From NCBI GenBank assembly GCA_963760155.1, contig CAVXBL010000003.1, positions 58,663 to 122,662 on the forward strand: a DNA stretch of 64,000 nucleotides, in the 5' to 3' direction. The notes under the pieces are model-generated. The model was not told where the DNA came from, did no database searches, and worked only from the letters and a program-made list of their open reading frames with translations. Position 1 is the first letter of the stretch, and every line of letters starts with the position of its first letter. This document shows positions 3,291-29,928 of the stretch, one piece after another. Position numbers and translations under genes: made by a program. This DNA is from an uncultured Solirubrobacterales bacterium. GTDB lineage: Bacteria; Actinomycetota; Thermoleophilia; Solirubrobacterales; Solirubrobacteraceae.

Positions 3291-3785
3291 CTATGGATTG
3301 TCGTCAAGCGACTCGAGCAGGCGAGCGTCGGCGATGTCCTGTGGCCGTCCGGCCGCAAGCTTCATCCTCAGCAGATCGTCGCGGTGCGCGATCGGGACAG
3401 TCACCTCGCCGAGCGGAACCTCGTGTGCACGCGCTCGCATATCCTCAAAAGAGCCGAGATGGGCCGGAAGCGTGAGCACGTCGAGTCGCCCATGAGAGGT
3501 AACCAGATGCCACTGGTCGCTCGATCCAAGCAACGCCGCGCTCGGTACTGAGCGAGAACGCTCGCCGTCGGGGCCAAGGATTCGCGCGTCGAGGTCAACC
3601 AAGGCGGCGGCAAGCCTCTCCATGTTCTCGCTTGATGGGGAGATCGCCACATCCAGGTCGCGCGTAACGCGCTGTCCGCCATGGGCCTGAACAGCGATGC
3701 CGCCAATCGTCACGTACTCAACCCTACGATCCGCGAGCACGCGGAACAGCTCGCGCGCCTCGAAGCGGTCCTCGCCACCGCTCAC
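3291..3785 (-). CDS. Putative nucleotidyltransferase (AbiEii/DUF6036-like)
   Basis: GGIAVQAHGG.R.TRDLD NTase motif and C-terminal MKLAAGRPQD; GTG start overlaps the upstream stop (GTGA 3782-3785). Confidence 0.7.
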   Translation of the reverse strand: MSGGEDRFEARELFRVLADRRVEYVTIGGIAVQAHGGQRVTRDLDVAISPSSENMERLAAALVDLDARILGPDGERSRSVPSAALLGSSDQWHLVTSHGRLDVLTLPAHLGSFEDMRARAHEVPLGEVTVPIAHRDDLLRMKLAAGRPQDIADARLLESLDDNP

Positions 3786-3982
3786 GAGCCGGCGCGGCCG
3801 GTCACCTTGACCAAGCCGGAGCGAAGCTCGACGGCGACCTCGTTCCAGCTCAACGCGAGCGCTAGGCGCTCGGACATCGGGCGTCGCCGAGCGTCCAGCA
3901 CCGCCTCGGATATGGCCAGCGAATCGCGCACCGTATCGGCGGCAAAGGGATGGAAGGGCTGCTCGAACTCGCCGGCCGGCAT
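3782..3982 (-). CDS. Small protein coupled to the nucleotidyltransferase (possible antitoxin/partner)
   Basis: 66 aa ORF filling the gcvPB-NTase gap; its stop overlaps the NTase start. Confidence 0.55.
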   Translation of the reverse strand: MPAGEFEQPFHPFAADTVRDSLAISEAVLDARRRPMSERLALALSWNEVAVELRSGLVKVTGRAGS

Positions 3983-3988
3983 GCGTAC

Positions 3989-5596
3989 TTACTGTAGAGC
4001 CTGGCGAATCACAGGACGCTTCGCCGCGCCGACCTCGTCCAGACGCCTGACCGGCGTCGTGTAGGGCGCACCCAGCGCGATCTCCGGGTCCTCGGCGGCC
4101 TCGCGCAGGATCTCCGCGAGCGCCTCGGCGAAGCCGTCGAGCGTCTCCTTGGTCTCGGTCTCGGTGGGCTCGACCATCAGCGCCTCGTCCACGAGCAGCG
4201 GGAAGTAGACCGTCGGCGGGTGATAACCGTAGTCGAGCAGCCGCTTGGCGAGGTCGAGTGTCTTGATCTTCAGATTGCGCTTCATCGGACCCCCAGACAG
4301 CACGAACTCGTGCAGGCAGAGATCGCCGTATGCAAGCGGCAGCTGCTCGCACACACCAAGCTGGCGCAACCGCGCGAGCAGATAGTTGGCGTTGAGCACG
4401 GCCGTCTCGGAGGCGTCCTTCAGGCCAGGCGCGCCGAGCGAGCGGATGTAGGCGTAGCTGCGCACGAAGCAGCCATAGTTACCCTGAAAGCCGCGTAGGC
4501 GTCCGATCGAGTGGGAGCGTCCCGACCCGTTGGAGCGTCCTCCGTCCCGCAGCATCCCGCCGCCCGGCCCCCCATAGCCCTCGGCGCGATCGCCGACGAG
4601 GTCAAACGAGCCGTCCTCGCCGTGCACGACGCGCGGCACTGGCAGAAACGGCTCGATCCGCTCGGACACCGCGATCGGACCCGAACCGGGCCCCCCGCCC
4701 CCGTGCGGCTGGGTGAAGGACTTGTGCAGGTTGAAGTGCACAATGTCAAAGCCCATGTCACCGGGGCGTGAGAGGCCCATGACCGCGTTGAGGTTGGCGC
4801 CGTCGTAGTACAGCGTCGCGCCCACACCGTGCACAACGCTGGCGATCTCCTGGATGTTGGGGTCAAACAGGCCGAGCGTGTTGGGGTTAGTCAGCATCAG
4901 GCACGCCACGTCGGCGTCGGCCTTGGCGCGCAGGTCCTCGACGTCCACTCCACCGTCGGGGTTGGTGGCGAGCTTGACCACCTCGAAGCCCGCCATCGTG
5001 ACCGTCGCCGGATTGGTGCCGTGGGCGGTGTCGGGCGTGAGCACCTTGTGGCGACTCTCGCCGCGGGACTCGTGGTAGGCGCGCGTGAGCAGCACTCCCG
5101 CGAGCTCGCCGTGGGAGCCGGCCGACGGCTGCAGGCATACGTGCGGCAGGCCCGCTATCTCGGCAAGCGCCTCCTGCAGGTTCCACATCAGCTCCAGCGC
5201 CCCCTGCGCGCGCTCGGGGTCCTGCAGCGGATGCAGGCGAGCGTGGCCCGGCAGCGCCGCCACGCGCTCATGCAAGCGCGGGTTGTGCTTCATCGTGCAG
5301 GAGCCCAGCGGGTAGAAGCCGGAGTCGAGGTCGAAGTTGCGCTTGGAGAGGCGCACGTAGTGGCGCACGATCTCCGGCTCTGAGACCTCCGGCAGGAGCG
5401 GCGGCTCGGCGCGGCGCAGGCGGGCTGGCAGCAGCTCGTCAAGCGGCGCGTCGGGGACGTCAAGCGCGGGACATTGGAATGCACGCCGACCCGGAGCGCC
5501 GCGCTCGAAGATCGTCACAGCCGCTTCGCGTTGGAGCGCCGTGTCAGTGCTCTGCACGGGAGGTCGCGGCGTGCTCGTTGTAGATGCCTGGCTCAC
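3989..5596 (-). CDS. gcvPB: Glycine dehydrogenase (decarboxylating) subunit 2
   Basis: YPLGSCTMKHNP, QPSAGSHGE, SAHG-like TAHGTNPAT, HFNLHKSF..PHGGGGPG. Confidence 0.96.
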   Translation of the reverse strand: MSQASTTSTPRPPVQSTDTALQREAAVTIFERGAPGRRAFQCPALDVPDAPLDELLPARLRRAEPPLLPEVSEPEIVRHYVRLSKRNFDLDSGFYPLGSCTMKHNPRLHERVAALPGHARLHPLQDPERAQGALELMWNLQEALAEIAGLPHVCLQPSAGSHGELAGVLLTRAYHESRGESRHKVLTPDTAHGTNPATVTMAGFEVVKLATNPDGGVDVEDLRAKADADVACLMLTNPNTLGLFDPNIQEIASVVHGVGATLYYDGANLNAVMGLSRPGDMGFDIVHFNLHKSFTQPHGGGGPGSGPIAVSERIEPFLPVPRVVHGEDGSFDLVGDRAEGYGGPGGGMLRDGGRSNGSGRSHSIGRLRGFQGNYGCFVRSYAYIRSLGAPGLKDASETAVLNANYLLARLRQLGVCEQLPLAYGDLCLHEFVLSGGPMKRNLKIKTLDLAKRLLDYGYHPPTVYFPLLVDEALMVEPTETETKETLDGFAEALAEILREAAEDPEIALGAPYTTPVRRLDEVGAAKRPVIRQALQ

Positions 5597-7262: not shown

Positions 7263-7661
7263 CTAGCCAAGGCTGGCGCTGTAGGCGTCGGCGTCCATCA
7301 GCCCGTCGCGCTCGGTGGGATCGGACATGCGCACCTTCACGAGCCAGCCCTCGCCGTAGGGGTCGTCGTTGATCTCGTGCGGTTTGTCGGCGAGCGCGTC
7401 GTTGACCTCGACGATCTCCCCCGACAGCGGAGCGACCACGTCGGAGACGGCCTTGACGGACTCGACCTCGGCGTAGGGCTCATCCTTGTTGAGGATCGTG
7501 CCGGGCGCGGGCGGGTCGAAGTACACGACCTCGCCGAGCGCGTCCTGCGCGTACCAGGTGATGCCGAGCACCGCCACGTCGGGATCGGCGGGGTCGATGC
7601 GGGCCCAGTCGTGTTCGGGGTGGTACAGCAGGTCGTCGGGGTAGCTCACCTCGGCCATCAC
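7263..7661 (-). CDS. gcvH: Glycine cleavage system H protein
   Basis: GIT.YAQDALGEVVY, EVESVKAVSDV (lipoyl-Lys) and NDDPYGEGWL. Confidence 0.97.
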   Translation of the reverse strand: MMAEVSYPDDLLYHPEHDWARIDPADPDVAVLGITWYAQDALGEVVYFDPPAPGTILNKDEPYAEVESVKAVSDVVAPLSGEIVEVNDALADKPHEINDDPYGEGWLVKVRMSDPTERDGLMDADAYSASLG

Positions 7662-8803
7662 TGGTCCTTTCGATAGAGCGGTTTGGACTTGACGGTCGCG
7701 GGGCGGATCTTGCCACGAACGTTGATTTCGATGGGCGTGCCCACGCCCGAGCGCTCGGCCGGGACGTACGCCATGCCGATGCCGACGCCCAGCGAGGGCG
7801 AGAGCGTGCCGCTCGTGACCTGTCCGCCGCCGACCACGGGGTTGCCCTGGCGGGCGATGCCGGGGCCGTCGAGCGTGAACGCGACGAGCCTCTCCGGCGG
7901 CCTGCCGGCAGAGCCCAGTGTGGGCGTCGCCGACGCGGAGGACACAGGGAAATCAGAGGACGCAAGCGCGGCCTGAAGGGCGGTCCGCGCGGCGCGGATC
8001 GCGTCCGCGCCGATGAAGCCGGTGTCCTCCCGGCAGCACCAGCCGAGGCCCGCTTCGATCGGATTACGGTCGAGCGACAGGTCGTTGCCGTACAGGTGAA
8101 AGCACGCCTCCAAGCGCAGCGTGTCCCGCGCAGCCAGCCCGGCCGGGGTGGCGCCACGGTGGCACAGCTCGTCCCACAGCGCGGGGGCGTGCTCGGGCGC
8201 GAGCAGCAGCTCGACGCCGTCCTCGCCGGTGTAGCCGGTGCCGCACACGAGCAGCTCGGCACCGGACAGGCGACGGGTAGCGGCGGTCATGCGGGCGGGT
8301 AGCGGCGCGTCGGAGATCGCCTGCACGATCTCGCGCGCGAGCGGACCCTGCACGGCAAGCATCGCGTAGTCGTCGATGCGGTCGTGAACTTCGACATCAA
8401 AGTCGCCGGTGTGCTGACAAAACCAGTTCAGATCACGCTCGTGGTTGGAGGCGTTGGTGACCGTCAGGTAGCGGTTGGGCTCCAGGCGGTAGGTGAACAG
8501 ATCATCGAGCACCCCACCGTCCTCGCGGCACAACACGCTGTACTGCGCGCCACCGACGGGAATGACCGACACGTCGTTTGACAGCAGGCGCTGCAGCAGT
8601 GCGAGCGCGCCGGGACCGGACGTCTCGATCTCGCCCATGTGCGACACGTCGAAGATGCCGCAGCGCTCGCGCACCGCCATGTGCTCGGTGCGCACCCCGT
8701 CGGGGTACTGCACCGGCATCTCCCACCCGGCGAAGTCAACAATCTTCGCGCCCGCCGCGACGTGGCGGTCGTATAGGACGGTGCGGCGAGGGGCGGACGA
8801 CAC
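7658..8803 (-). CDS. gcvT: Aminomethyltransferase (glycine cleavage T protein)
   Basis: FAGWEMPVQY, GIFDVSHMGE, TGYTGEDGVEL and ARDTLRLEA; GTG start inferred. Confidence 0.96.
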   Translation of the reverse strand: MSSAPRRTVLYDRHVAAGAKIVDFAGWEMPVQYPDGVRTEHMAVRERCGIFDVSHMGEIETSGPGALALLQRLLSNDVSVIPVGGAQYSVLCREDGGVLDDLFTYRLEPNRYLTVTNASNHERDLNWFCQHTGDFDVEVHDRIDDYAMLAVQGPLAREIVQAISDAPLPARMTAATRRLSGAELLVCGTGYTGEDGVELLLAPEHAPALWDELCHRGATPAGLAARDTLRLEACFHLYGNDLSLDRNPIEAGLGWCCREDTGFIGADAIRAARTALQAALASSDFPVSSASATPTLGSAGRPPERLVAFTLDGPGIARQGNPVVGGGQVTSGTLSPSLGVGIGMAYVPAERSGVGTPIEINVRGKIRPATVKSKPLYRKDQ

Positions 8804-24567: not shown

Positions 24568-24963
24568 ATGCCAGCAGTAAAGAAGTTCACCATTACACCG
24601 TTGAAGTTCGATCAGAACCTCGTTGAGCAGGTAACGCACCGCCGGGCAGACGGCGAGAATATCGCCACCATAGCCACAGCGTTGAAGATGGGCGCTGGCA
24701 AGGTGGCGTTCGCTGAGTTGATCGCCACGACCACACGCGTCACCATCACCGACCCGGCGAAGCTGGCGCGCACCATCAGCAAGGACAGGCACAACGGCAA
24801 GTCGTGGGGCTGGCTGGCTGCGCGCTACGGCGTGACAGAGGGCACATGCCGCGCCGCGTTCGTGGCCGCCAGCGGCCAACCATTCACATCAATCGACTAC
24901 CGCCGCAAGGCAAAGGCAGCCGGCAAGACGACCAAGCCTGCACAGGCCAAGGCAGGTGCGTGA
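24568..24963 (+). CDS. Putative double-HTH DNA-binding protein coupled to the integrase
   Basis: GENIATIATALKMG and GKSWGWLAARYGVTEG HTH-like segments; TGATG overlap with int. Confidence 0.6.
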   Translation: MPAVKKFTITPLKFDQNLVEQVTHRRADGENIATIATALKMGAGKVAFAELIATTTRVTITDPAKLARTISKDRHNGKSWGWLAARYGVTEGTCRAAFVAASGQPFTSIDYRRKAKAAGKTTKPAQAKAGA

Positions 24964-26207
24964 TGGCGGGCCACATCAGGAAGCGGGGCAAGCGCGCAGA
25001 CGGCACGATCAAGTGGCAGGCGCGCTATCCCGATCCAACAGACCCCACCGGACAGCGCCGCATCGAGAAGGGCGGCTTCAACAGCAGGAAAGAAGCGGAA
25101 GACTGGCTGACCAATCAGCAGGCGTCGGTGCTGCACGGCGAACACCGCGACCCGCGCCAGGCGCAGCGCACATTCGTGGAGGCGGTAGAGGCGTGGCGTG
25201 AGACGCGCAAGCCTCTACTCTCGCCCAACACGCAAGAACGCTATGAGGACATTCTGCGCCTGCGGCTGATGCCTGAGTTCGGTCATCTGCCGCTCACGGC
25301 GATGACGCGCGAAGTCCTCAAGCGCTACTTCGCACGATTGGGCCGCGAGGGCAAGACCGGCGGCAAGAAGGAGCGCGCAGGCAAGCCGCTCGCCAACGGC
25401 ACCGTGCGCAAGATTCACTGTGTCCTGTCGGCGGTGCTGAGCGAGGCCGTCGAGATGGACATGATCCGGGCCAACCTCGCGCAGCGCATGAGGCTCCCCG
25501 CCTCGCCCCGGCGGAAGATGACGATCCTCACGCAGCAAGAGGTTCGCGCTCTCGCGGACGCAACCGACGAGCACTACAGGACAGCCGTGCTGCTCGATGC
25601 CAACACGGGGATGCGCGCGAGCGAGCTATGGGCGTTGCGGCGCATGGACGTTGACCTGCTGCGCGGCGTGCTGCACATTCGCTTCGCGGTCAAGCGCGAC
25701 ACCGCCCGCCCGGACGCGCCGCCGGAGACGGTGGATAGGTACGGGCGTGAGATCGGCCCGCCTAAGAACGGCAGGCCGCGCACGATCGCCATCGGCAAGG
25801 CCACCTGCGCGATGCTGGCGCAGCACTTGACCCGGCCCGCTCCCGGCGGCAATGGCCCTGAGACGTTGGTATTCCTCACCGAGACGGGCTGCGCCGTTCG
25901 GCATGGGGTGTTCATGCGTGAGGTGTTCGCCGAGGCGGTCAAGGAGCTACCGGCGGACAAGCGCAAACTTCGTTTTCACGATCTGAGGCACACCTGCGCT
26001 TCATTGCTCGTGGCGCAGGGCTCCCCCATGCTCTACGTCAAGGAACGCCTCGGCCACTCGTCAATCACGACGACGATCAACCTCTACGGCCACATGTTCC
26101 CGTCCGTGGAGGCGAGCCTTGCCGACGCCCTGGACGGCATGTACGCCGAGGATGCCGGCGTTGACGAGGACAACGTGACGCCCCTGCGCGCCGCCGGAGG
26201 CGCGTGA
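24963..26207 (+). CDS. Tyrosine recombinase/integrase (intact)
   Basis: Arm-binding N-terminus (KWQARY...GGF...KEA), TGMRASELWAL, PKNG, FHDLRHTCASLL and LGHSSI.TT.NLYGH. Confidence 0.95.
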   Translation: MAGHIRKRGKRADGTIKWQARYPDPTDPTGQRRIEKGGFNSRKEAEDWLTNQQASVLHGEHRDPRQAQRTFVEAVEAWRETRKPLLSPNTQERYEDILRLRLMPEFGHLPLTAMTREVLKRYFARLGREGKTGGKKERAGKPLANGTVRKIHCVLSAVLSEAVEMDMIRANLAQRMRLPASPRRKMTILTQQEVRALADATDEHYRTAVLLDANTGMRASELWALRRMDVDLLRGVLHIRFAVKRDTARPDAPPETVDRYGREIGPPKNGRPRTIAIGKATCAMLAQHLTRPAPGGNGPETLVFLTETGCAVRHGVFMREVFAEAVKELPADKRKLRFHDLRHTCASLLVAQGSPMLYVKERLGHSSITTTINLYGHMFPSVEASLADALDGMYAEDAGVDEDNVTPLRAAGGA

Positions 26208-27289: not shown

Positions 27290-27296
27290 CGAGAAG

Positions 27297-27369
27297 TACC
27301 GCCAACGGGATTCGAACCCGTGTTACCGCCGTGAGAGGGCGGCGTCCTAGTCCCCTAGACGATGGCGGC
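27297..27369 (-). tRNA. tRNA-Glu (CTC)
   Basis: GCCGCCA/TGGCGGT acceptor stem, anticodon arm CCGCC-CTCTCAC-GGCGG, GGTTCGAATCC T-loop; CCA not encoded. Confidence 0.96.
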
Positions 27370-27505: not shown

Positions 27506-27589
27506 GCGGATGTGGCGGAATTGGTAGACGCGCGGCGTTCAGGTCGCCGTGCCCGTCAGGGCGTGGAGGTTCGAGTCCTCTCATCCGCA
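27506..27589 (+). tRNA. tRNA-Leu (CAG)
   Basis: GCGGATG/CATCCGC acceptor stem, GGAATTGGTAGAC D-arm, CGGCG-TTCAGGT-CGCCG, long variable arm, GGTTCGAGTCC. Confidence 0.96.
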
Positions 27590-27665
27590 TTCCTTCGGAA
27601 CCCAAGTCTTCGGACTCAAACCCGTTGAGCCCGCTTGTGCTTGCCGCTCTACGAGAAGGCAGCCG

Positions 27666-27859
27666 TCAGCGCGGGTTCGGCGGCACCGAAACGCCGAGCT
27701 GTTCGCATATGGCTCGCGTCAGACCCGGCCCGATCTGCCTGTGCCGCGGGAGGGCCGAGACCTCGCCATTCGGCCCACGCCACACTTTGCGTGCTTTGAA
27801 CCGCCTACCTCCCGGCAGCCGTGCTCACGCAGATGACGTTCCAGATCGCGCCGCTTCAC
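27666..27859 (-). pseudogene. hicA: HicA-family toxin, frameshifted (not in ORF track)
   Basis: VKRRDLERHLREHGCREVGGSKHAK / WRGPNGEVSALPRHRQIGPGLTRAICEQLG; frameshift at about 27781-27786; GTGA overlap with the hicB stop. Confidence 0.75.
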
Positions 27860-28083
27860 GCCGCGGCGACGAACCGAAGATGCTCCAGATCCTTGCCCGA
27901 GCGTCGCCCTGAAAGCTCATCATCCGGCGTGAGCACCGTGCGCAGCGCATCGAGCACGTTCTCCCGTGCCTCCTCTCGCGTGCGGCCCTGGCTGAGAGCT
28001 CCTGGGACCTCCAGCACACGCGCGACGACCCAGCCTGCCTCGTCGGGCTCCTCGAAGGCGATCGTGAAGTCAATCGAGGACAT
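27856..28083 (-). CDS. hicB: HicB-family antitoxin (short, no HTH)
   Basis: EEPDEAGWVVARVLEVPGALSQGRTREEARENVLDAL. Confidence 0.88.
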   Translation of the reverse strand: MSSIDFTIAFEEPDEAGWVVARVLEVPGALSQGRTREEARENVLDALRTVLTPDDELSGRRSGKDLEHLRFVAAA

Positions 28084-28233
28084 GGGCACACAGTAGCGCC
28101 TCGCACGCTGGGCAGCGAGATCGATGAGACTATCGTCTGATCTGGTAGTAGCCCCTCGTGGTGCGCTCCCTAGAGTCCCTCGGCCCCGGCCGGACGACGG
28201 CCGCCTCGAATACCGCCGCCAGGGCCGTCGAGG

Positions 28234-28262
28234 GGTTCGAGAGCTTCCTACCAAGTGCACTG
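28234..28262. repeat. Direct repeat copy 1 (partner at 29758-29787)
   Basis: GGTTCGAGAGCT-TCCTACCAAGTGCACTG. Confidence 0.85.
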
Positions 28263-28338
28263 GGAGGCCAGCTGGCCCTCCGTCGAGGCCCTCGTAAGCT
28301 CCGAGAGACTTTACGCCGGCGACGCGTGGATCGAAAGG

Positions 28339-28563
28339 TCAGGCCGCGATCCCGACCTGCGGCGGCGGCAGCATCTGCAGGAAGTCGGCTGGCAGCTCAC
28401 GGCTAGCGTGCCAGAACTCCAGGCCAACAATCCGCCCCGTCGTGGGATCGAGTTCACGCAACCCTGTGTCGGTCTCCTCGGCCACGACGGTACTCGGGTC
28501 ATATCCCTCAAAGCGCACCCACGCGATATCCGCGTCGCTGTCGTAGTGTCCATCGATCCGCAT
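28339..28563 (-). CDS. DUF2283 family protein (putative antitoxin)
   Basis: YDSDADIAWVRF...ELD..TGRIVGLEFW. Confidence 0.82.
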   Translation of the reverse strand: MRIDGHYDSDADIAWVRFEGYDPSTVVAEETDTGLRELDPTTGRIVGLEFWHASRELPADFLQMLPPPQVGIAA

Positions 28564-28572
28564 GGCTACAGG

Positions 28573-28812
28573 CTAGCGCCGCCGCCAAATCGTCACAACA
28601 CGCGCCACGAGAGGATCATCGCCGTCTGGATACTCGTAAGCAACCACCAGGCGACCGGCCATAATCAGCCACGCCGCCTCGCCCTTGTTGCGTCGGCGCC
28701 TGCGATGCCCAGCAAGCAGCGCTTCCTCCACGTCATGCCGAGCAAAGCCGAGTTGCCGCGCCTTGTCGAGCGCGTGAAGCGTCCATCGGACGGAGATCGG
28801 TTCGGTCGGCAT
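28573..28812 (-). CDS. DUF4258-like putative RelE-fold toxin
   Basis: WTLHALDKARQLG....DVEEAL...LVVAYE.....VVTIW; directly upstream of DUF2283. Confidence 0.75.
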   Translation of the reverse strand: MPTEPISVRWTLHALDKARQLGFARHDVEEALLAGHRRRRRNKGEAAWLIMAGRLVVAYEYPDGDDPLVARVVTIWRRR

Positions 28813-28852
28813 CGCGCCGCAGGCTACGCCCCGTTCCGGATAATCCGCCTGC

Positions 28853-29425
28853 CTATATAGGCGATTGCTGGGCTTCGTAGCGCTTGGCGTTCTGTCGTAT
28901 GGCGTAAATGACCCCTTCGACAAGCGCTAGATACTCGTCTACCTGCTTGGTCGTGACCTCACGCCGGGGGCCGTGAATCGCAAGATTGCGCATCACCGTG
29001 ATGCCCTCAATCGCGTTGACCGTCAGCCGACTGATTAGACCACGCGTAGCCGCCAGCTGCACCAACTGAGCAGCACCCGCATCGTCAGGCGGCTTATCGC
29101 CGATCCCTTCTAGGGTGGTACGAAGCTCCTGCTCGACTAGACCAAATGCCTCGGCTATAACCATCTCGGGCACCTGCGCCGCAAGGTCTGTAAGGTCGGG
29201 AGCCTCGGCACGAACGGGCACCGGAATACCAGCCTCGCCGAGATTGGTCTCGACCTTGGACGCCGCACGATCAAAGTCGGCCTTAAACGGGCCGGCCTCA
29301 ACGTGGCGCAACCGGTCAGTCAGCAAGGTCTTGAGCTGGCTCCGAAAGACAAACACGATAAAGACCACAGTAAAGGGCCAGACCAGCGAGCTAACCAGCG
29401 AAGCGATGAACTGCTTGGCATCCAT
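28853..29425 (-). CDS. N-terminal TM protein with C-terminal HEPN/DUF4145-like domain
   Basis: TM helix LVWPFTVVFIVFVFR; C-terminal MRNLAIH (RX4H) in a helical domain. Confidence 0.65.
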   Translation of the reverse strand: MDAKQFIASLVSSLVWPFTVVFIVFVFRSQLKTLLTDRLRHVEAGPFKADFDRAASKVETNLGEAGIPVPVRAEAPDLTDLAAQVPEMVIAEAFGLVEQELRTTLEGIGDKPPDDAGAAQLVQLAATRGLISRLTVNAIEGITVMRNLAIHGPRREVTTKQVDEYLALVEGVIYAIRQNAKRYEAQQSPI

Positions 29426-29439
29426 AGACCGAGCGAACC

Positions 29440-29785
29440 TACAACAAGGTGCCCCATGCAGCCGATAGGTCGCATAAGCGATGCATTCGAAATGCTGCTT
29501 CCTGCCGTGCGAACCCGTGCGCAGCGAACAGCTCACCGACTCTTTGGAGACATGGCGCCCGAGCAGGCGCTCTACACCAGCAGGGACTTCGCCGGTCCGC
29601 ATCGGCCTGTCTGCCGCCGTGAGCACTTGAACGACCGCCCGCTGAACAACTCCATTGCCAAGACGCTTCGGTGGCGGCTGCAACGACGGCGGCTGTAACG
29701 CCCGTCGCTGGACTCGACTTCGCAGCAAATCCAGAATGGATCGCAGGCTTGGCGACAGGTTTGAGAGCTGTCCTACCAAGTGCAC
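29440..29785 (-). pseudogene. Winged-helix-like ORF remnant starting at the repeat (VHLVGQLSN)
   Basis: VQRAVVQVL.AADRPM..GEV...VERLLG..VSKESVSCSL; reads in frame into the TM-HEPN gene. Confidence 0.4.
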
Positions 29786-29787
29786 TG
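29758..29787. repeat. Direct repeat copy 2
   Basis: GGTTTGAGAGCTGTCCTACCAAGTGCACTG. Confidence 0.85.
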
Positions 29788-29928
29788 CTCGATCGATGTT
29801 GGAACCGGCAGCGTGGTTCCATCATTGTTCCCGGTTCCGCGCCCGCGCCCGCGCCACTGCTGCATCGTTGTCTGCGAGCCAAGACCCGCCTGGGTGCGAT
29901 GCCGCCACACTGGTTACCCTTGACGACC

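Follow-up and report, generated by a model that had tools for sequence, protein, structure and literature searches.

This report concerns a repeat of about 30 bp in a 64,000-nt stretch of DNA (the window, numbered from its first letter) from the genome of an uncultured Solirubrobacterales bacterium, together with the island of genes which that repeat delimits behind a tRNA-Leu(CAG) gene. In our view the repeat is probably a 27-nt half-site on the element side (P), belonging to integrative elements that are driven by a large serine recombinase (LSR) and that, in Solirubrobacterales, insert right behind the tRNA-Leu(CAG) 3' end; the island in the window would be made up of two tandem units of this kind that have no recombinase. 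At least some of the elements are probably conjugative, judging by their genes, and similar to actinomycete integrative and conjugative elements (AICEs). In what follows, S denotes the repeat block read on the tRNA-Leu strand, with the canonical 27-mer GGTTTGAGAGCTGTCCTACCAAGTGCA, F' denotes the block class CCAAAATCTTCTGACTCAAACC found directly after tRNA-Leu, and G- and L-numbers denote genomes and loci, respectively, the genome of the window being G000. A first-pass annotation of this DNA had proposed either an att-like site or scars left by a serine-recombinase element, and this proposal is supported by the junctions, by the finding that S and the tRNA end are equivalent, by the constraint at the DNA level and by the LSR elements of relatives.

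The two copies of the repeat lie on the plus strand at 28234-28262 (GGTTCGAGAGCT-TCCTACCAAGTGCACTG) and 29758-29787 (GGTTTGAGAGCTGTCCTACCAAGTGCACTG), as annotated, and they are the sole copies in the 3.74-Mb assembly. They are one substitution and one 1-nt indel apart, and a repeat-finding program overlooked the pair because of this indel. A 16-nt core is identical in both; with three mismatches allowed, two matches were found in 3 of 100 shuffles. Aligning both copies and their flanks with MAFFT gave no useful information. Both minus-strand open reading frames (ORFs) do begin with V/MHLVG, as had been pointed out. Among Solirubrobacterales genomes, 31 stretches contain the exact 27-mer of the second copy (S2), as do 16 metagenome contigs, and every exact match to the repeat traces to metagenome-assembled genomes of uncultured Solirubrobacterales or Solirubrobacteraceae. 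The annotation had also held that the repeat is not a tRNA fragment, which agrees with ARAGORN finding nothing at the repeat; a T-arm cannot be formed either, and S is a mimic of the tRNA end, not a copy. A structured RNA was rejected as well, as an Rfam search at permissive threshold finds just tRNA-Glu and tRNA-Leu, and a hairpin in codons 10-20 proved inconsistent between the copies when read by eye. Inspection by eye revealed no consistent -10/-35 or Shine-Dalgarno motif at the repeat on either strand. With regard to a possible auto-operator, the genome holds no extra copies of the repeat beyond the gene starts.

On the minus strand the repeat spells the first nine codons (V/MHLVGQLSN) of a winged helix-turn-helix (wHTH) family of about 112-115 aa from uncultured Solirubrobacterales. 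Across 400 species genomes of the same genus, a conserved stretch of about 85 nt with a sharp start at the repeat is the 5' end of this gene. The family has an N-terminal MHLVGQLSNPSAALAAVFEA, a variable linker and then RLGNGVVQRAVVKVL..RPM..LLGHPVSK.SVSWCL..RFERVARGRYRL. An AlphaFold2 model of the member headed by S2 predicts a confident winged helix at residues 44-109, residues 1-11 being disordered, and the best fold matches of the model are winged-helix DNA-binding domains in the PDB (Rok, Zalpha, Fur-type), all with E > 0.009. Pfam HARE-HTH scores 14.6 bits on the protein, below the cut-off of 25.9; a PDB sequence search with the family gave chance-level matches only, and PADLOC and NCBIfam gave nothing meaningful. 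Thirteen partial copies of the gene end at 28, 53, 55, 66, 84, 86, 100, 103, 134, 151, 171, 188 and 284, and a fixed truncation point as a site-specific signature is ruled out by this scatter. A fusion is seen in L050 (G552, 7511-8062), where the head, cut to its first 53 nt, runs into an XRE-family gene (183 aa) that differs at the N-terminus from its G274 orthologue; the next full wHTH gene follows 30 nt further on. At L029 and L133 (G467) an 18-bp tandem duplication (CCTGGCCAATGCACTTGG x2) lies across the S boundary, just upstream of the head.

The codons of the head are almost invariant. Among 24 members of the family the majority codon is used at codons 2-9 in 181 of 183 cases, and the fixed codons include TTG, GTA, GGA and TCA, all of them rare by the standard of this G+C-rich genome, as compared to a majority codon usage of about 68% at winged-helix residues of equal conservation. 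The nine-codon peptide is itself modelled as disordered. Since a collection drawn through the head would be biased, we refer to a sample drawn through the protein body (94 distinct wHTH copies): the canonical 27-nt S is kept with at most 4 mismatches in 45 of them, some having bodies 47-58% identical, and the variant heads share a base skeleton, TGC...GGAC...TCAAACC. Conservation stops exactly at the start codon, and the sequences upstream are diverse. Conservation of the block is at the level of DNA, not of protein. It had been pointed out in the annotation that the repeat could simply be the place where a duplicated wHTH gene starts, conserved at its 5' end and with no variation in cargo; it is indeed the 5' end of such a gene, but this objection holds only by half because there is much variation in the cargo behind the repeat and the constraint on the block acts at the DNA level.

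S occupies the position of the tRNA-Leu 3' end. The final 22 nt of this tRNA are present in 347 of 401 genomes of the genus, and at least five classes of flank occur, in register, both right of S and right of this 3' end: a 38-nt block beginning TTTCGGCAGGGTTGAACGTCGCTATTCGAACC, the 3' end of an XRE gene, a terminator-type hairpin CCTGCAAATCG, the F' block and a GTTGGAACC block. F' follows tRNA-Leu in G377, G306, G302, G387 and G360, and the terminator-type flank right of the G306 S is found directly after tRNA-Leu in many genomes. An in-register identity of 20/30 or more to one of 57 tRNA flanks is reached by 37 of the 111 distinct S flanks (28 of the 111 reach 22/30 or more), while in reversed, shuffled and out-of-register controls none of the 111 reaches 20/30. 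In the window, the flank of S2 matches the sequence directly after tRNA-Leu of G428 at 42 of 56 positions, ungapped and in register, a score reached by none of 20000 shuffles, the best other offset giving 24/56. At the opposite end of the island, 27593-27669 recurs in G326 (87% identity over 79 nt), where it lies after hicA and abuts an S-like site instead of a tRNA. It follows from these flank matches that bases 27590-29784 are an insertion placed exactly between tRNA-Leu and its G428-type flank, with S at the distal end, and the uninterrupted tRNA-Leu/flank sequence is found in relatives (e.g. G428). The tRNA-Leu site is a general hot spot. The synteny of the window (tRNA-Glu / tRNA-Leu ... 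L,D-transpeptidase) is also seen in L196 (G017, 3433-5085, reverse) with a 1.65-kb gap that contains other genes (the start of a Phd-like antitoxin) and no S.

Whole elements in relatives run from tRNA-Leu through serine recombinase, replication-relaxation and coupling-protein genes to wHTH with S, and then to the flank. The G306 element is 10.9 kb long and comprises, after tRNA-Leu, F', an LSR, Replic_Relax, a 717-aa ORF, XRE and S, followed by the terminator-type flank; all its genes have one orientation, and there is no further recombinase and no tyrosine integrase among its called ORFs. The 717-aa ORF resembles the TrwB-like protein (Pfam) of G387, which together with an LSR and an inserted transposon lies between tRNA-Leu and wHTH-S in an element of 27.6 kb. 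The LSRs of G306 and G387 both have the domain composition Resolvase + Recombinase + Zn_ribbon_recom. G302 (2.7 kb) and G291 (4 kb) have the same two ends and no recombinase. When 566 island ORFs were clustered, transposases, PIN, DUF2283, HicAB and XRE were found, and no integrase or recombinase family was recurrent among these ORFs of the sampled islands. With regard to the check suggested in the annotation, i.e. a survey of cargo and linked recombinases in relatives, the cargo is very varied, LSRs are present in G306 and G387, and no recombinase recurs in the sampled islands. As there is no LSR between 27590 and 29787, the window holds remnants and not a complete LSR element.

Two further observations concern the S islands of relatives. 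A four-gene module, consisting of an XRE-HTH protein, a small protein, a MRLSEMGLEPTTLACL-starting protein and a MRRQPILVIQADD-starting protein, recurs in several genomes (L049, L051, L053, L055, L057, L060, L088). There are also cargo-less pairs of half-sites, in which an arm of about 22 nt, a loop of 3-8 nt and an S-like arm of about 27 nt form perfect hairpins of 9-12 bp; they are located in the window (29785-29841), L202 (G428, 586-700), L201 (G377, 613-670), L121 (G321) and L174 (G394), they stand in tandem after tRNA-Leu or ahead of full units, and their arms co-vary between loci.

We propose the following arrangement. S would be the P half-site, the last 22 nt of tRNA-Leu the host-side (B) half-site, and F' and similar blocks the P' arm, so that the integrated order would be tRNA-Leu, P' arm, cargo, wHTH, S and the former tRNA flank. 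The first nine codons of wHTH would be written across the half-site, on the opposite strand and at the element's distal end, and the block would be frozen as DNA because these codons overlap the P half-site. An LSR, rather than another enzyme, would recognise S, and the crossover may take place at or beside a GCA shared by the two half-sites. The wHTH start codon abuts the foreign flank right of S, which is often a terminator hairpin, and the genes of G306 all point one way; on these grounds we infer that wHTH loses upstream transcription on integration and regains it from the recombinase operon in the excised circle. As to the window, unit 1, on the tRNA side, would comprise a hicA pseudogene, hicB, a deleted wHTH and a degenerate S1 (the first copy), and unit 2 would comprise DUF2283, DUF4258, a transmembrane-HEPN-like (TM-HEPN-like) ORF, wHTH and the canonical S2.

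The architecture of the putative sites is consistent with this arrangement. S of G306 (27 nt) aligns with the tRNA-Leu 3' end (22 nt) at 18 of 22 positions with a single 5-nt gap, and the two share a distal GGTTYGAG and a proximal GTCC...GCA. S and F' together span 49 bp and have inverted termini, GGTTTGAG / CTCAAACC. The attP site of Bxb1 ends in GGTTTGT...ACAAACC, which is similar to these termini. In the sites of serine integrases, attB is shorter than attP by about 10 bp and has its zinc-ribbon motif 5 bp closer to the centre (PMC3783163); here, the element half-site is longer than the host half-site and the distal motif is shifted by 5 bp. The present putative sites share with attP/attB of A118/LI, Bxb1 and phiC31 (PMC3783163) half-sites of about 20-25 bp, a distal motif displaced by 5 bp and a shorter attB, but their inner dyad is weak and the host B' arm is unconserved.

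A number of points weigh against our interpretation. S and F' form inverted repeats in their outer 8 nt, but further in they are unlike each other and show little dyad symmetry; the B' arms vary between hosts, no zinc-ribbon motif was found by eye in the common terminator-type flank, and CA is, at a guess, the only invariant non-palindromic dinucleotide that could serve for crossover. Since flank classes are common to genomes that are related, the 37 matches cannot be counted as so many independent events. The window island lacks a recombinase, and the search for a cognate LSR found none in the genome, whose best LSR homologue is 53% identical and located at a tRNA-Pro. Neither a circular form nor an empty site of the window island was seen, the lone other assembly being identical. 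Elements of another type use the same region: in G387 a 3.9-kb tyrosine-integrase element is flanked by exact 22-nt tRNA-Leu repeats (C1 2376240, 2380174), and metagenome contig L093 has a tyrosine integrase 65 nt from S. Finally, recombination between attP and attL is not an expected activity of LSRs; units stacked in tandem must therefore come about in some other way, and the stack in the window would have arisen by accretion or by homologous recombination between heads.

The tRNA-Pro element just mentioned lies on contig C3 of G000 (146194-154241), about 24-32 kb right of the window's end, where an LSR (Resolvase + Recombinase + Zn_ribbon_recom) and Replic_Relax abut tRNA-Pro(GGG). The flank after this tRNA, CTGTTTGAGTCTTATTTGAACC, ends in the inverse of GGTTCAAA, that tRNA's T-loop motif. 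Because the genome's own LSR element abuts tRNA-Pro, LSR elements seem to be matched to different tRNA ends in this lineage. At a distance of 7.97 kb there is a candidate P site of the tRNA-Pro element, GGTTCAAATACCGTCCGGTTAGGGCGA, which lacks secure statistical support and at which no wHTH gene starts.

Other explanations of the repeat have to be weighed against the LSR half-site. It might be an ordinary paralogue remnant, a stretch conserved because a wHTH regulator gene was duplicated and its 5' end was kept, with the block acting as an A+T-rich translation start without a Shine-Dalgarno motif or as an auto-operator and with its position at the island end being incidental. Both copies do start wHTH genes, one of them decayed, the truncation points of the 13 partial copies are scattered, there is no Shine-Dalgarno motif upstream, and the block has about 50% G+C in a G+C-rich genome. 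However, among the codons that are fixed are CAC, CAG, CTC and AAC, for which more A+T-rich alternatives exist, 27-nt S copies persist without a gene in G321, G394, G377 and G428, and neither the same in-register flanks at S and at the tRNA-Leu end nor the likeness of S to that end with a 5-nt insertion is accounted for; we therefore regard a mere paralogue remnant as very unlikely. Alternatively, S could be a diverged copy of the tRNA 3' end (an attR or attP core) left by a tyrosine-integrase island and later co-opted as a gene start. Integrases do occur beside tRNA-Leu in G387 and near S in L093, exact 22-nt repeats of the tRNA end surround the 3.9-kb element of G387, and several genomes have 2-4 copies of the 22-mer. 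Because direct copies of the 22-mer flank the G387 element, classical integrase elements and S-type elements must be taken to use the same tRNA. Two to three direct copies within 1-17 kb were recorded in G260:C196 (18477-32292), G387:C1, G504, G432, G436 and G452. Yet classical elements leave true repeats of the tRNA end, whereas S differs from it, is 5 nt longer and is constant across species, and the called ORFs of the compact element in G306 include an LSR but no tyrosine integrase. A conserved half-site of 27 nt also exceeds the core sites of tyrosine recombinases, which counts against this explanation. In the window no direct repeat of the tRNA 3' end marks the distal boundary: the repeat search gave no second copy of the 22-mer, and a search for the last 17 nt of the tRNA with one mismatch gave the tRNA only. 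A tyrosine-integrase origin of S is accordingly unlikely in our opinion.

The remaining two alternatives concern the stacking of units. The repeats could mark an active integron-like platform, on which units without a recombinase (P' arm, cargo, wHTH, S) are stacked in trans and S/P' junctions play the part of attC. Tandem S sites 0.6-2.5 kb apart are found in at least six genomes, a wHTH-hicBA unit lies beside the tRNA in the window, G315 and G309 and beside S in G584 and G326, the cargo behind wHTH is very varied, and cargo-less P'-loop-S units exist. On the other hand there is no IntI-like enzyme or attC-type structure, no recombinase family recurs in the gene clusters of the sampled islands, recombination of attP with attL is not predicted by LSR chemistry, S1 of the window is degenerate with a base lost in the most conserved part of the site, and homologous recombination between heads explains the arrays equally well. 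We judge such a platform to be quite unlikely. A broader version, in which a serine-recombinase cassette system at tRNA-Leu is an analogue of integrons, excision and integration at the P half-site in the wHTH start switch the upstream transcription of that gene and recombinase-less mini-units with toxin-antitoxin or defence cargo are moved and stacked in trans, is doubtful; in that case wHTH may act as a sensor of the integrated state ('am I integrated?') or as a directionality or maintenance factor. The LSR half-site remains the interpretation that we prefer.

It is instructive to compare the proposed LSR elements with known systems. In mobile integrons, the tyrosine recombinase IntI acts together with attI and attC hairpins (RYYYAAC...GTTRRRY, 57-141 nt). 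The island of the window has no recombinase, and its S/P' junctions, of about 49 nt, are conserved in sequence, not in structure. Like cis-mobilizable elements (CIMEs), accretion at tRNA sites and mobile integrons, the present islands are arrays bounded by att sites, without a recombinase, which are built up behind a fixed site and carry toxin-antitoxin and defence-like cargo; they differ in that they have no IntI, attI or attC and in that their sites resemble serine-recombinase half-sites. With regard to the overlap of site and gene, Broussard et al. are said to have described in 2013 an integration-dependent immunity of mycobacteriophages in which attP lies inside the repressor gene. There, as here, an att site is inside a regulator gene and integration changes the output of the gene; the phage system has its site at the 3' end, where a degradation tag is removed, and uses a tyrosine integrase, whereas here the site covers the start codon and nine codons, and integration would swap the promoter or leader, not the protein. 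Certain AICEs are comparable too: 19 of 144 use serine recombinases, and eight mycobacterial ones enter a tRNA-Leu gene, a target called rare (PMC3218068). Like these Mycobacterium elements (PMC3218068), those described here combine an LSR, a host among the Actinomycetota, tRNA-Leu and small conjugative or replicative gene sets, which in G387 consist of Replic_Relax and a TrwB-like coupling protein and have homologous ORFs in G306; the likeness is one of description. The present elements differ in that they belong to Thermoleophilia/Solirubrobacterales, insert after the last tRNA base and not inside the gene, have a P half-site that overlaps a gene start, and have given rise to many recombinase-less derivatives and stacks.

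The features of the window can now be described in order. ARAGORN and Rfam place tRNA-Glu at 27296-27369 (minus strand) and tRNA-Leu(CAG) at 27506-27589 (plus strand), the last 22 nt of the latter (27568-27589, GGTTCGAGTCCTCTCATCCGCA) being the proposed B half-site and left junction, attL. That no recombinase is adjacent, as had been annotated, is correct for 27590-29787, but a tyrosine integrase is located at 24804-26207, beyond tRNA-Glu. The left end of the island, on the putative P' side (27590-27669, plus strand), consists of TTCCTTCGGAAC, an F'-like block CCAAGTCTTCGGACTCAAACCC and a spacer that reaches the hicA stop. The annotated hicBA of unit 1 is present behind copy 1 on the minus strand, but its hicA (27668-27859) is a pseudogene, frameshifted by a 2-nt insertion near 27784-27785 as seen in alignment with the intact 63-aa orthologue of G584 (Pfam HicA_toxin, 2.7e-10). 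The 75-aa product of the hicB-like antitoxin gene (27856-28083, minus) is assigned from a weak, sub-threshold HicB_lk_antitox match and from gene order, and the window thus lacks an intact HicA beside a HicB above threshold. The undeleted order wHTH-hicB-hicA is kept in G584, G326 and four further loci. The wHTH gene of unit 1 (28130-28260, minus) is internally deleted, its first ~95 nt being joined to the last ~45 nt (..ERTTRGYYQIRR*): nhmmer covers only positions 2-100 of the family profile, and the 3' end aligns to the gene end of G584. S1 (28234-28259, plus strand, 26 nt) is a degenerate putative P half-site that lacks the G of the invariant GTCC.

In unit 2, the annotated DUF4258-DUF2283 pair lies on the minus strand, with DUF2283 (28339-28563; PF10049, 1.3e-5) above the Pfam cut-off and the DUF4258-like gene (28573-28812; PF14076, 0.0023) below it; the pair has 75-77% nucleotide identity in four relatives, with no S nearby. 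The TM-HEPN-like ORF (28853-29422, minus, taken from the ORF list) gives 189 aa from an internal ATG. It has an Rx4H motif, RNLAIH, read by eye, and no family was assigned to it by Pfam, NCBIfam or PADLOC, apart from one far-sub-threshold NCBIfam match. The wHTH gene of unit 2 (29440-29785, minus) had been called a remnant; it is, however, a full-length match to the family DNA profile, and the remnant sits at copy 1. No stop codon closes this gene, which reads through in frame to the TM-HEPN-like ORF, so that it forms the first 115 codons of a 310-codon ORF (28853-29785, minus). In the automatic annotation of an identical public contig the HEPN-like gene starts at the internal ATG and the wHTH gene was missed. 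S2 (29758-29784, plus strand) is the exact canonical 27-mer and would be the right junction, attR. The flank to its right (29785-29841, plus strand), itself a cargo-less half-site pair, reads CTGCTCGATCGATGTTGGAACC, GGCAGCGT and GGTTCCATCATTGTTCCCGGTTCCGCG, and the L,D-transpeptidase gene starts at about 29929. The only other assembly that holds the island is 100% identical.

Among serine-recombinase integrative elements at tRNA-Leu, the present ones would be unusual in that their half-site doubles as a gene start. If our interpretation is true, a serine-recombinase system exists in nature that uses as its host site the final 22 nt of a tRNA gene, a type of target reported to be rare, and the same 27 nt serve both as att half-site and as coding start, which would account for the frozen rare codons. 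The compact, sequence-defined attP/attB pair would be a candidate integration tool. It would likewise follow that what looks like a 'duplicated gene start' may in fact be a site of recombination, a point that bears on how repeats in islands are read, and that the variable toxin-antitoxin and defence islands of this uncultured soil lineage can be delimited as the segment from tRNA-Leu to the last S.

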